Positions 11,294-25,159 of a stretch of DNA of 28,274 nt are shown one piece after another; positions within the stretch are counted from its first letter, which is position 1, and every line of letters begins with the position of its first letter. A model generated the notes under the pieces. The model made no database searches. It was not told the origin of the DNA and saw nothing but the letters and a program-made list of their open reading frames with translations. Made by a program: the position numbers and the translations under genes. Origin of the DNA: Parcubacteria group bacterium CG08_land_8_20_14_0_20_43_9 (GTDB taxonomy: Bacteria; Patescibacteriota; Minisyncoccia; Minisyncoccales; PEYH01); NCBI GenBank assembly GCA_002774465.1, contig PEYH01000045.1, positions 3,115 to 31,388 of the forward strand. Direction: 5' to 3'.

Positions 11294-11305
11294 ATCTTTT
11301 TTCCC

Positions 11306-11343
11306 TAAACCAAAAATCCGCTCTTCAGCGGATTTTTGGTTTA
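11306..11343. terminator. Bidirectional intrinsic terminator between HU and the tRNA operon
   Basis: Perfect 17-bp inverted repeat TAAACCAAAAATCCGCT-cttc-AGCGGATTTTTGGTTTA between convergent units. Confidence 0.85.
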
Positions 11344-11345
11344 AA

Positions 11346-11416
11346 AGCGGGAGACGGGAATCGAACCCGCATTAACAGATTGGAAATCTGGAGTTCTGCC
11401 ATTGAACTACTCCCGC
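11346..11416 (-). tRNA. tRNA-Gly(TCC), CCA not encoded
   Basis: GCGGGAG/CTCCCGC acceptor, U73, anticodon loop TTTCCAA, TTCGATT T-loop. Confidence 0.95.
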
Positions 11417-11436
11417 ATTCGGGGGGCCCGGACTTG

Positions 11437-11466
11437 CCTGTCCCAGGCGGGTCCGCCTTGGGCGGA
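11437..11466 (-). repeat. 30-nt GC-rich palindromic insert in the T-loop of the tRNA shell
   Basis: TCCGCC-CAA-GGCGGA hairpin plus CCCG and CCTG-GGA-CAGG; removing it restores TTCAAGT. Confidence 0.75.
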
Positions 11467-11510
11467 AACCGGGAATCTTTCGCTCCTGCACCCGCCTAAT
11501 TTTTGCGCAT

Positions 11511-11581
11511 TCGGGGTGCTGGGAATTGAACCCAGTCTGCGTACTCCCAAAGCACGAGTACTACCGGTATACGACACCCCG
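11511..11581 (-). tRNA. tRNA-Pro(TGG), CCA not encoded, nested in the shell
   Basis: CGGGGTG/CACCCCG acceptor, A73, anticodon arm CGTGC-TTTGGGA-GTACG, CTGGG-TTCAATT-CCCAG. Confidence 0.93.
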
Positions 11582-11639
11582 AAAATTTTGGCGGGCAGGA
11601 GCGAAAATGTCAACCATTACACCACCCCCCGCAATTATG

Positions 11640-11668
11640 ATGTTAGTGGAAAAGCAGCGGTTTGTGAA
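11640..11668 (-). promoter_or_regulatory. Candidate promoter for the shell/Pro/Gly tRNA unit
   Basis: TTCACA(11668-11663)-17bp-TAACAT(11645-11640); start predicted near 11633, just before shell base 1. Confidence 0.5.
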
Positions 11669-11724
11669 GAGGTTTCTTGATTTTCCCGATTATGTTAAAA
11701 TATATCAATATGTAAAATGCGCTT

Positions 11725-12681
11725 GTGGACAACATCCTTTTTCAATTTAACATTTTCGCCCAATGCAGAAAATATCAAGTCCCGCTGGGGCAGTGTCCCC
11801 AATTCCTGTTTTTGGTTATGGGCATAATTATTATCGTTGCCAGCGTTTCATTTTACGCAATAGGCGAAAGATATGTGTCAGACCCGAGAATAGTGGCGTT
11901 AGTCATTTTAGTGGTCTCCATAACCCTGCTTGTTATTGCCTTTACTATTACCCGCAGTTTTGAGGATTTGGCAGAAGCCAACAGAATGAAGGCCGAGTTT
12001 GTGAACATAGTTTCCCATCAGCTTAGAGCCCCCCTGACCAATTTGAGATGGGCCACCCAATTTTTATCATCCGGAGAGTTTTCAACAGTGGCTAAAACAT
12101 TAGCCACTGGCAAGGAATCGGAATATTTTGAGATTATAAAAGATAATTCTCACAGGATGGAACAGCTGATTGACGATTTGCTTACTATCACCCGCCTGAA
12201 AGAGGGCAGAGCCGACACCAAGAAAACGAAATTTTCATTGGCCGGAGTGGTCAGGGGCGTGATAGATGAAGCCCGGCCCTTTATGAAGGCATCTAATATC
12301 TCGATTGAATTAAAGGAAGAGAAAAATACGCCGCTGGTCTTTTCAAGTTATCCCTTGACAAAGATAGTGGTTGAGAACTTTGTGAACAATGCTATCAATT
12401 ACAGCAAGAGAGGAGGGAAAGTAGCCATAGAGATCAGGCCGCTGCCCAAAAGAGTTGAGTTCAGAATAACAGACAATGGAATTGGCATTCCAGCCGGAGA
12501 CCAAAAATATATTTTCGAAAAGTTTTTTCGGGCTAAAAATGCCGACAAGGCGTCTATCTACGGCACGGGATTGGGGCTTTTCATCGCGAAACTGGTTATT
12601 GATGAGATGAAGGGGAAAATTTGGTTCAAATCCCGGGAGAATCAAGGAACGACCTTTTATTTTACTCTGCCAACGAGTTAA
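11725..12681 (+). CDS. Sensor histidine kinase (2 TM, HisKA, HATPase_c)
   Basis: H-box FVNIVSHQLRAPLT, N-box NFVNNAINYS, G1 DNGIGIP, G2 GTGLGL. Confidence 0.95.
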   Translation: MDNILFQFNIFAQCRKYQVPLGQCPQFLFLVMGIIIIVASVSFYAIGERYVSDPRIVALVILVVSITLLVIAFTITRSFEDLAEANRMKAEFVNIVSHQLRAPLTNLRWATQFLSSGEFSTVAKTLATGKESEYFEIIKDNSHRMEQLIDDLLTITRLKEGRADTKKTKFSLAGVVRGVIDEARPFMKASNISIELKEEKNTPLVFSSYPLTKIVVENFVNNAINYSKRGGKVAIEIRPLPKRVEFRITDNGIGIPAGDQKYIFEKFFRAKNADKASIYGTGLGLFIAKLVIDEMKGKIWFKSRENQGTTFYFTLPTS

Positions 12682-23288: not shown

Positions 23289-23330
23289 GCGGTTGCTTCG
23301 CAACCTAAAATAAAAATGTAAAACTAAAAA
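23289..23330 (+). repeat. tRNA-Arg 3' trailer element, copy B
   Basis: Identical to 267-308 (minus) over 42 nt. Confidence 0.95.
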
Positions 23331-25091: not shown

Positions 25092-25159
25092 GCGGTTGCT
25101 TCGCAACCTAAATTAAAAATGTAAAACTAAAAATGAAAAGTAAAAACAAAATGAAAAAT
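25092..25159 (+). repeat. tRNA-Arg 3' trailer element, copy C
   Basis: 41/42 to copy B; 65/68 to copy A. Confidence 0.95.

Follow-up and report, generated by a model that had tools for sequence, protein, structure and literature searches.

A tRNA-Pro(UGG) gene nested in the anticodon loop of another tRNA-Pro gene in Patescibacteria: a probable replacement-tRNA cassette

The window analyzed here is a stretch of 28,274 nucleotides from Parcubacteria group bacterium CG08_land_8_20_14_0_20_43_9 (contig PEYH01000045.1, positions 3,115 to 31,388), in which an earlier note, made by a model from the letters alone, had described an intact tRNA-Pro(TGG) gene lying between the two halves of a second tRNA-like sequence on the minus strand. 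By comparison with congeneric genomes, we found that the outer sequence (hereafter the shell) corresponds to the resident tRNA-Pro(UGG) gene of a tRNA-Pro/tRNA-Gly operon. Similar nests, with conserved ends, occur in many other Patescibacteria. On the basis of these sequence comparisons, we consider it probable that a small cassette carrying a replacement tRNA has been inserted recurrently at the DNA level, such that the inner gene would do the work and the shell would be a decaying relic. The genome to which the window belongs (G000) is a 463-kb, 43% GC, 96%-complete bacterial metagenome-assembled genome from groundwater, in which transfer-messenger RNA (tmRNA) is present, and its publicly named relatives are Patescibacteria (Parcubacteria/Paceibacterota, Portnoybacteria and Harrisonbacteria).

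ARAGORN and Rfam reported only the inner tRNA-Pro(TGG) (11510-11582 and 11511-11581, respectively; 51 bits) and tRNA-Gly(TCC) at this locus, as had been predicted for tRNA finders, and the flanking halves were read directly from the sequence. The parts of the locus are listed below in the order of transcription, a slash marking the junction between shell and cassette sequence:

11640-11668, minus strand: promoter-like TTCACA-17-TAACAT, ending 9 nt ahead of shell base 1 and placing the start just before that base
11601-11631, minus strand: 5' half of the shell, equivalent to bases 1-31 of the resident tRNA-Pro(UGG) and comprising the D-arm and the 5' strands of the acceptor and anticodon stems; 29/31 identical to the intact gene of congener G003
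11590-11600, minus strand: cassette left arm TCCTGCCCGCC, 11 nt, a variant of the family left end TT/CTTGCCC(C)GCC
11582-11589, minus strand: A/T linker AAAATTTT from the left arm to the inner tRNA, 8 nt
11511-11581, minus strand: inner intact tRNA-Pro(UGG), with all stems paired and U33, G37, C1-G72 and A73 in place
11497-11510, minus strand: right linker, 14 nt, its first 5 nt (ATGCG) repeating the 5 nt 3' of the shell
11484-11496, minus strand: cassette right arm GGCGGGTGCAGGA, 13 nt, a variant of the conserved right end CGGGGTGAA/GGA, pairing with the left arm with a GT bulge left over
11419-11483, minus strand: 3' half of the shell, equivalent to bases 39-73 of the resident tRNA-Pro and comprising the 3' strands of the anticodon and acceptor stems, the variable loop, the T-arm and A73 (CCA not encoded); 33/35 identical to G003 when the T-loop insert is set aside
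11437-11466, minus strand: 30-nt palindromic element in the shell T-loop, between positions 55 and 56
11346-11416, minus strand: tRNA-Gly(UCC), 2 nt 3' of the shell and in a common transcription unit (ARAGORN and Rfam)
11307-11337, minus strand: hairpin and T-run after tRNA-Gly, likely an intrinsic terminator, read by eye and kept in congeners G003 and G004; missing from the list given by the consensus scan

Direct reading confirmed the base pairs that had been claimed for the shell. All seven acceptor pairs (11631-11625 with 11426-11420, followed by A73 at 11419), all four D-stem pairs, all five pairs of the anticodon stem (11605-11601 with 11483-11479) and all five of the T-stem (11473-11469 with 11431-11427) are present; the T-stem encloses a loop of 37 nt rather than 7 nt because of the palindrome at 11466-11437. 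The stalk of 12 bp, one 2-nt GT bulge on the 3' strand and 5 bp, likewise predicted in the earlier note, is part of the minimum-energy fold. This fold (217 nt) is a nested double cloverleaf on a stalk, with a free energy of -102.6 kcal/mol and a z-score of -4.3, and none of 200 shuffled sequences folded as well. The promoter candidate, the 2-nt spacer to tRNA-Gly and an 11-nt direct repeat (11414-11424 and 11506-11516, the latter copy including part of the right linker) could all be found as described. The repeat had been read as a sign of an insertion origin; it fits equally well with gene conversion or with a substrate for the deletion of the shell 3' half that is seen in relatives. A second promoter-like site (TTGACA-17-CAAAAT, 11585-11613, minus strand) is contained in the shell 5' half and left arm; the single D-loop difference from the G003 ortholog created its -35 element. 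This site is probably due to chance, because its start would fall at or inside base 1 of the inner tRNA. In the whole genome, ARAGORN identified 36 tRNA genes, of which only those with CGG and UGG anticodons were for proline. The inner tRNA-Pro(UGG) is the sole UGG isoacceptor found and presumably the working gene.

The identity of the shell is clear from the congeners. G003 has an intact tRNA-Pro(UGG) gene at the same place, with the same promoter motif ahead of it and tRNA-Gly downstream, and the joined shell is identical to this gene at 62 of 66 positions (94%). Two of the four differences form a compensated pair (T6:A67 to G6:C67), and the others are single bases in the D-loop and the variable loop. 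In G004, a different intact tRNA-Pro(UGG) occupies the same place, again behind the promoter motif, and is followed by AT and then by a tRNA-Gly identical to that of G000, which is very unlike the tRNA-Gly of G003. Thus, the operon is a mosaic with a G003-like shell and a G004-like tRNA-Gly, and homologous exchange between lineages is evident here. The shell has been broken by two insertions, namely the cassette in the anticodon loop (TTTGGGA changed to T, cassette and GGA) and the palindrome in the T-loop (TT/CAAGT), and only T32 and GGA36-38 are left of the old anticodon loop. The inner tRNA is of a different sequence type from the shell. Together with the left arm and linker (90 nt in total), it is 99% identical to a stretch of congener G002 (G002:C7), where the same inner tRNA and left arm lie inside a different, decayed shell; G003 and G004 do not have the insert.

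To date, the same arrangement has been found in a considerable number of other genomes, as the earlier note had proposed to look for. Seven of 401 genomes of the order, belonging to six families, matched a strict pattern made up of the shell D-loop, 20-50 nt and the beginning of the inner tRNA, with one control match. In a species-representative collection, 25 stretches matched, about 18 of which are real, and all of these are from Patescibacteria. A junction-based pattern was used for metagenome contigs and gave 67 matches; in 58 of them a tRNA-Pro(UGG) begins 12-23 nt past the conserved left end. The shell 3' half was good (at least 6/7 acceptor pairs and at least 4/5 T-stem pairs) in 35 of these 58 nests, representing 24 distinct sequences, in which the T-loop is mostly canonical and CCA is encoded in several cases. 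Because the arrangement recurs in so many other genomes, the nested layout is far beyond chance.

Members of the family have a co-oriented 5' half ending at U32/U33, the left end, a complete tRNA-Pro, a complementary right end and a 3' half starting from positions 36-39. The common layout comprises shell positions 1-31, TT/CTTGCCC(C)G, a helix strand of variable sequence, 2-8 nt, tRNA-Pro(UGG), a few nt, the complementary helix strand, CGGGGTGAA/GGA and shell positions 39-73. G000 fits the consensus of the 24 distinct metagenome nests and seven genomes, and its ends are slightly degenerate: the left end lacks one T, and the right end reads TGCAGGA for TGAAGGA. In the family, the ends CTTGCCCCG and CGGGGTGAAG form an inverted repeat, and the cassette arms in G000 are imperfect terminal inverted repeats (11/13 nt). 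RNAalifold analysis of 14 diverse nests gave the double cloverleaf, and 37 of the 64 consensus pairs showed compensatory changes; within the stalk, covariation is confined to the inner portion, and the outer portion does not vary. T34 and G35 of the old loop are absent from the family consensus. Distribution is patchy even within the genus of G000, two congeners (G003 and G004) being nest-free.

Two metagenome loci, L058 and L055, provide an empty and a filled site. They have ~99% identical flanks and the same outer shell, and in L055 a further 114-nt cassette with the same end words splits the tRNA that is intact as the inner gene in L058. The loop TTTGGGA has become TT, cassette and GGA, with the loss of two loop bases, and the newly formed shell carries two stem changes. 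Three-layer stacks were observed in L055, L072, L088 and G171, and three 5' halves in series in G082/L076. The earlier note had offered a pseudogene with intact stems as one of three explanations, and this came closest; the resident tRNA-Pro(UGG) is indeed broken by two insertions. The recurrent family with conserved insert ends and multi-layer stacks goes beyond what had been noted there.

Shells and inner genes differ in their state of preservation. The inner gene is intact in all 58 metagenome loci, of which 35 retain a good shell 3' half. In near-identical variants, uncompensated stem-breaking changes occur only in the shells (L117, L083 and L055), and changes in the inner genes fall in the D-loop. 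Some shells are perfect, in part with CCA, others are mutated, and in yet others the 3' half is gone; in G002, G141 and G082, the 3' half has been lost or the acceptor has decayed. L076 equals L103 minus the shell 3' half, the loss lying between CCCCGA repeats at the two tRNA 3' ends; the 11-nt repeat of G000 is likewise located at two such 3' ends. Hairpin elements were found in the T-loop, variable loop or anticodon stem of shells in G000, L049, L087, L059, L058 and G044. In shell anticodon-stem regions, two such families were noticed: a 20-nt perfect palindrome starting CCTGCCTGCC, which resembles two cassette arms joined without cargo, and a ~30-nt hairpin CCCCGNAG...CTACGGGG. They replace each other between near-identical contigs (sites at L055:2090-2409 versus L058:6270-6489; also G044 (L003), L047, L049, L107, L029 and L059).

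The 30-nt palindrome in the T-loop of the G000 shell belongs to a family of double hairpins with one to six insertion sites per genome in 6 of 61 relatives and no control matches. It is found in-frame in at least eight long open reading frames (ORFs; 175-590 codons), where it is always read SAxGGxASG(G/W), as well as in one 23S-rRNA-like sequence and at T-loop position 55/56 of two tRNA-Leu fragments. Sites of this element are as follows:

L124, L127, L130, L133, L136 and L138: genome G026
L125 and L131: genome G042
L120: genome G017
L010: genome G001

Like Rickettsia palindromic elements (RPEs), the element is inserted in-frame in proteins and in RNA genes and can have several copies per genome; by this analogy, it is the counterpart of RPEs in the candidate phyla radiation (CPR). 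A link to two weak Y1/RAYT-like genes of G000 is a candidate. In L010 (G001:C9:26950-27500, minus strand), two further copies of the T-arm and acceptor 3' end of a tRNA-Leu(CAG) gene come after that gene; each copy holds the 30-nt palindrome in its T-loop, and the two flank a 90-aa GIY-YIG ORF whose stop codon lies inside the second palindrome.

Considering these results together, we propose that a 118-bp protein-less cassette, made up of a stalk of imperfect inverted repeats, short A/T linkers and an entire gene for tRNA-Pro(UGG), was probably inserted at the DNA level into the anticodon loop of the resident tRNA-Pro(UGG). The inner gene alone would be functional and would supply the tRNA-Pro(UGG) of the cell, RNase P and a 3' endonuclease presumably cutting it from the common transcript, and the stalk and shell stems may keep the leftover halves folded away from the inner tRNA. 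The shell would later have taken up the 30-nt element in its T-loop. The cassette family appears to target tRNA-Pro(UGG) genes of Patescibacteria repeatedly and at the same place, and Russian-doll stacks would arise because each cassette brings a fresh target; mutations, inserted hairpins and deletions between direct repeats would then erode the shells. For the spread of the cassette, DNA uptake followed by homologous recombination through shell homology seems the simplest route, a host hairpin or single-strand DNA enzyme being a possible alternative. Perfect shells and a covarying stalk fit young insertions into working genes combined with selection against leftover strands that disturb the inner fold.

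Several observations weigh against such a cassette. No enzyme, transposase end, target-site duplication or second cassette copy was found in G000, so mobility can be deduced only from comparison; each cassette arm occurs once in this genome, and the scattered CCGCC..GGCGG hairpins are generic. A Y1/HUH (RAYT-like) transposase was tried as mobilizer and rejected, since the two G000 homologs are weak and homologs are present in 211 of the 401 genomes (53%) and in four of the seven nest genomes, that is, with no association. The GIY-YIG gene of G001 was followed as a lead for a homing endonuclease, and this candidate was dropped: tblastn of the G001 protein against all fetched loci gave three homologs, none beside a nested tRNA-Pro, and no GIY-YIG gene was found in G000. 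A reverse transcriptase route was also discarded, as the genome encodes one group-II-like enzyme (387 aa, C29:1804-2967, adjoining rpsB and tsf) with nothing to tie it to the locus. Furthermore, many shells at other loci have no defect (all seven acceptor pairs, a canonical T-loop and in some cases CCA), their acceptor stems vary between loci by fully compensated pairs, and the stalk covaries, all of which could reflect selection on RNA rather than youth. The compensated pair by which the G000 shell differs from G003 may have arisen after the split of the gene.

Such features would be expected if the nest were a functional RNA design, in which the shell halves on the stalk form a selected, anticodon-less tRNA-like scaffold that might offer the inner tRNA as a substrate to RNase P and the 3' endonuclease or might be a two-piece tRNA-like RNA with its own role. 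Stalk covariation, acceptor and T stems that stay paired across diverse shell sequences, and canonical T-arms in the 24 distinct shells, several with CCA, speak for this, as does the finding that in no locus (among few independent ones) do shell and inner tRNA have identical acceptor strands and that pair 6:67 of the G000 shell differs by a compensated change from both the inner tRNA and the G003 ortholog. Nevertheless, the shell T-loop carries a 30-nt insert in both G000 and L049, the 3' half is missing or the acceptor decayed in many loci, three-layer stacks and serial 5' halves have no obvious use, the nests are patchy even within one genus, and close variants carry uncompensated stem breaks, including a strain variant that weakens the G000 stalk. 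On balance, we regard a selected scaffold as rather unlikely. Somewhat more doubtful still is the specific idea that the released halves make up a two-piece, anticodon-less, CCA-ended, selected tRNA-like RNA (for example, a processing chaperone, decoy or regulator), which would explain why acceptor and T stems of many shells are perfectly paired and distinct from those of the inner tRNA. The anticodon-less carrier suggested in the earlier note gains from the covarying stalk and the perfect shells elsewhere and loses from the disrupted T-loop in G000. A different possibility is that no mobile cassette exists and that the nests result from in-place partial tRNA duplications (tandem 5'/3' parts, template switching at the anticodon hairpin) with gene conversion, the conserved junction words then reflecting shared descent. 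Shell parts identical to the inner gene in L032 and L040, the spacer of L040, which resembles the upstream flank as in a tandem duplication, and the exchange between inner and shell 3' ends indicated by the 11-nt repeat of G000 are consistent with it. In L109 and L112, shell and inner tRNA have rare anticodon-stem variants in common, which also counts against the cassette, because such sharing suggests that the gene was duplicated or converted in place, not that a foreign tRNA was imported. Such an origin is difficult to reconcile with an inner tRNA of G000 that differs in type from its shell while the shell matches the native gene of a congener, with junction words that recur at each new layer and in a filled site ~99% like its empty counterpart, and with one inner tRNA and left arm occurring in two different shells of one genus; as a general explanation, it is quite improbable. 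In L032 and L040, the junctions are unrelated and the arrangement resembles a simple local duplication, so such layouts may have several routes of origin.

The shell could also be imagined as an intron-containing or split tRNA gene whose exons are ligated into a second tRNA-Pro, for instance the Pro(GGG) considered in the earlier note. The RtcB ligase is encoded in G000, and in one relative (G171, L023) removal of the insert would give exactly TTTGGGA within a shell that encodes CCA. However, a ligase alone does not establish an intron. A search for the splicing endonuclease EndA (PF01974, E up to 1) in the 96%-complete genome was negative with positive controls; no bulge-helix-bulge motif (two 3-nt bulges on opposite strands, 4 bp apart) occurs at the shell/insert junctions; and cmscan (E up to 1) detected no group I intron core or other Rfam family at the locus, only the two tRNAs, most of the 118-nt insert being tRNA. 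When the shell halves were joined with the T-loop insert kept, ARAGORN called no tRNA. With this insert also removed, which would need a second excision, a cloverleaf was obtained, but all excisions gave C33 and a non-proline anticodon; those leaving 7-9 nt gave CAG, CTG or CCT, and none gave U33 and NGG, in agreement with the earlier note, in which no single excision could be found to give a canonical Pro(GGG) loop TTGGGGA. The absence of T34 and G35 from the family consensus argues in the same direction. The G000 shell is not restorable by any single excision. Nor is it a hidden GGG gene, because its ortholog has the anticodon TGG, and a separate Pro(GGG) gene, whose presence was to be checked, was not found by ARAGORN in the whole genome. 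We therefore rejected both splicing of the shell and a tRNA-Pro(GGG) identity, and a spliced or split gene has very little probability. An equally slight chance is given to a scar left by a tyrosine integrase, or to an assembly chimera. Anticodon loops are classic integrase crossover sites, and G000 encodes one tyrosine recombinase, yet integration leaves a restored gene and a displaced partial copy, whereas at this locus both halves surround a complete gene; the length of the insert is a mere 118 bp, and neither an integrase nor an island lies adjacent, the neighbors being the housekeeping genes RNase Y, HU, a histidine kinase and response regulator (a two-component pair), ClpP and a pilus ATPase. 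With regard to assembly, independently assembled Logan contigs of two groundwater runs (1646 and 1265 nt), which are possibly from the sample behind the assembly of the window itself, cover 11300-11760 with no differences, so that the locus is not a misassembly. In a third run (X6), a strain variant has two left-arm changes (11598 and 11600) that weaken the stalk and are uncompensated. In all, 24 runs contain the locus.

It is useful to compare the proposed cassette with known systems. In Lak megaphages, a predicted tRNA (Thr-TGT) is interrupted by an insert predicted to hold a tRNA, and of the tRNA 'introns' described there, which were called enigmatic and have with- and without-insert variants, one 'itself may encode a tRNA' (Devoto et al. 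2019, PMC6784885). The resemblance lies in a tRNA interrupted by a tRNA-bearing insert and in variants with and without it. The Lak case concerns another tRNA in a phage genome. Its description includes neither conserved hairpin ends nor multi-layer stacks nor a decay series, and the assumption of splicing rested on a tRNA finder run in eukaryote mode, whereas the outer gene of G000 is not restorable. As in tRNA-gene islands and prophages, whose crossover lies in the anticodon loop or T-loop, a loop of a tRNA gene is targeted, the damage is offset by carried tRNA sequence and displaced fragments remain. However, islands and prophages span kilobases, have an integrase gene and copy just the tRNA part past the crossover, as a direct repeat; the insert here is 118 bp, protein-less and carries a whole tRNA gene enclosed by both target halves, that is, nested and not tandem. 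Archaeal disrupted tRNA genes are likewise interrupted in loops by helix-closed inserts that are thought to be mobile in some lineages. The archaeal forms (non-canonical introns, split and tri-split genes) need EndA and a bulge-helix-bulge and yield one mature tRNA; G000 has neither, is a bacterium (tmRNA) and has a loop that could not be rebuilt. The cassette shares with miniature inverted-repeat transposable elements (MITEs), repetitive extragenic palindrome doublets forming hairpins (REPINs) and RPEs its small size, lack of proteins, hairpin formation and need to be moved in trans, and with MITEs also its terminal inverted repeats. It differs from these elements in having no target-site duplication, a single copy per genome, a functional cargo of the same kind as the target and a covarying stalk in place of a fixed terminal repeat. 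Finally, the free-standing GIY-YIG enzyme SegB of phage T4 offers a parallel of preferential inheritance of a tRNA region with gene conversion around tRNA genes, and small GIY-YIG genes sit among duplicated tRNA pieces in the relative G001; G000 differs in the absence of such genes from its own genome and from beside the nested tRNA-Pro in the fetched loci. Full-text literature searches on nested tRNAs or tRNA introns in the CPR returned nothing relevant, and the nested layout has apparently not been described in bacteria before.

Some further tRNA features of the genome deserve mention. On contig C41, an orphan tRNA-Ala-like 5' half ending at U33 (C41:9349-9382; L142:350-383) follows tRNA-Ile(GAU), and an intact tRNA-Ala(UGC) of another sequence type lies 22 nt downstream of it (C41:9405-9479). 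The contig ends 64 nt past this inner tRNA-Ala, and only the 5' side can be seen; as judged from this side, the locus is a second overwritten tRNA of the G000 genome. On contig C29 (positions 1-60; L141), a tRNA-like 5' part running off the contig end is possibly the missing tRNA-Thr-UGU. Within the window, the same GC hairpin (GCGGTTGC TTCG GCAACC) with an A-rich repeat tract occurs at 267-308, 23289-23330 and 25092-25133, directly 3' of the CCA in all three tRNA-Arg genes, and in G001 a block of tRNA-Leu repeats ends in a similar hairpin. The hairpin has the look of a common module for termination or processing.

If the proposed explanation is true, very small hairpin cassettes would repeatedly overwrite tRNA genes of CPR bacteria in situ, each bringing a new copy of the gene that it destroys. 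No such mode of gene turnover, or perhaps class of selfish DNA, has been described for bacteria, and the stacks would serve as a fossil record of successive events. The responsible elements would be mobile cassettes of a new, protein-less class that have the anticodon loop as their target and bring their own replacement tRNA. Because tRNA finders report only the inner gene, the shells are left unannotated and could pass for introns or split tRNAs. The conserved insertion point beside U33, the conserved ends and the covarying stalk would provide handles for tracing the enzyme responsible.

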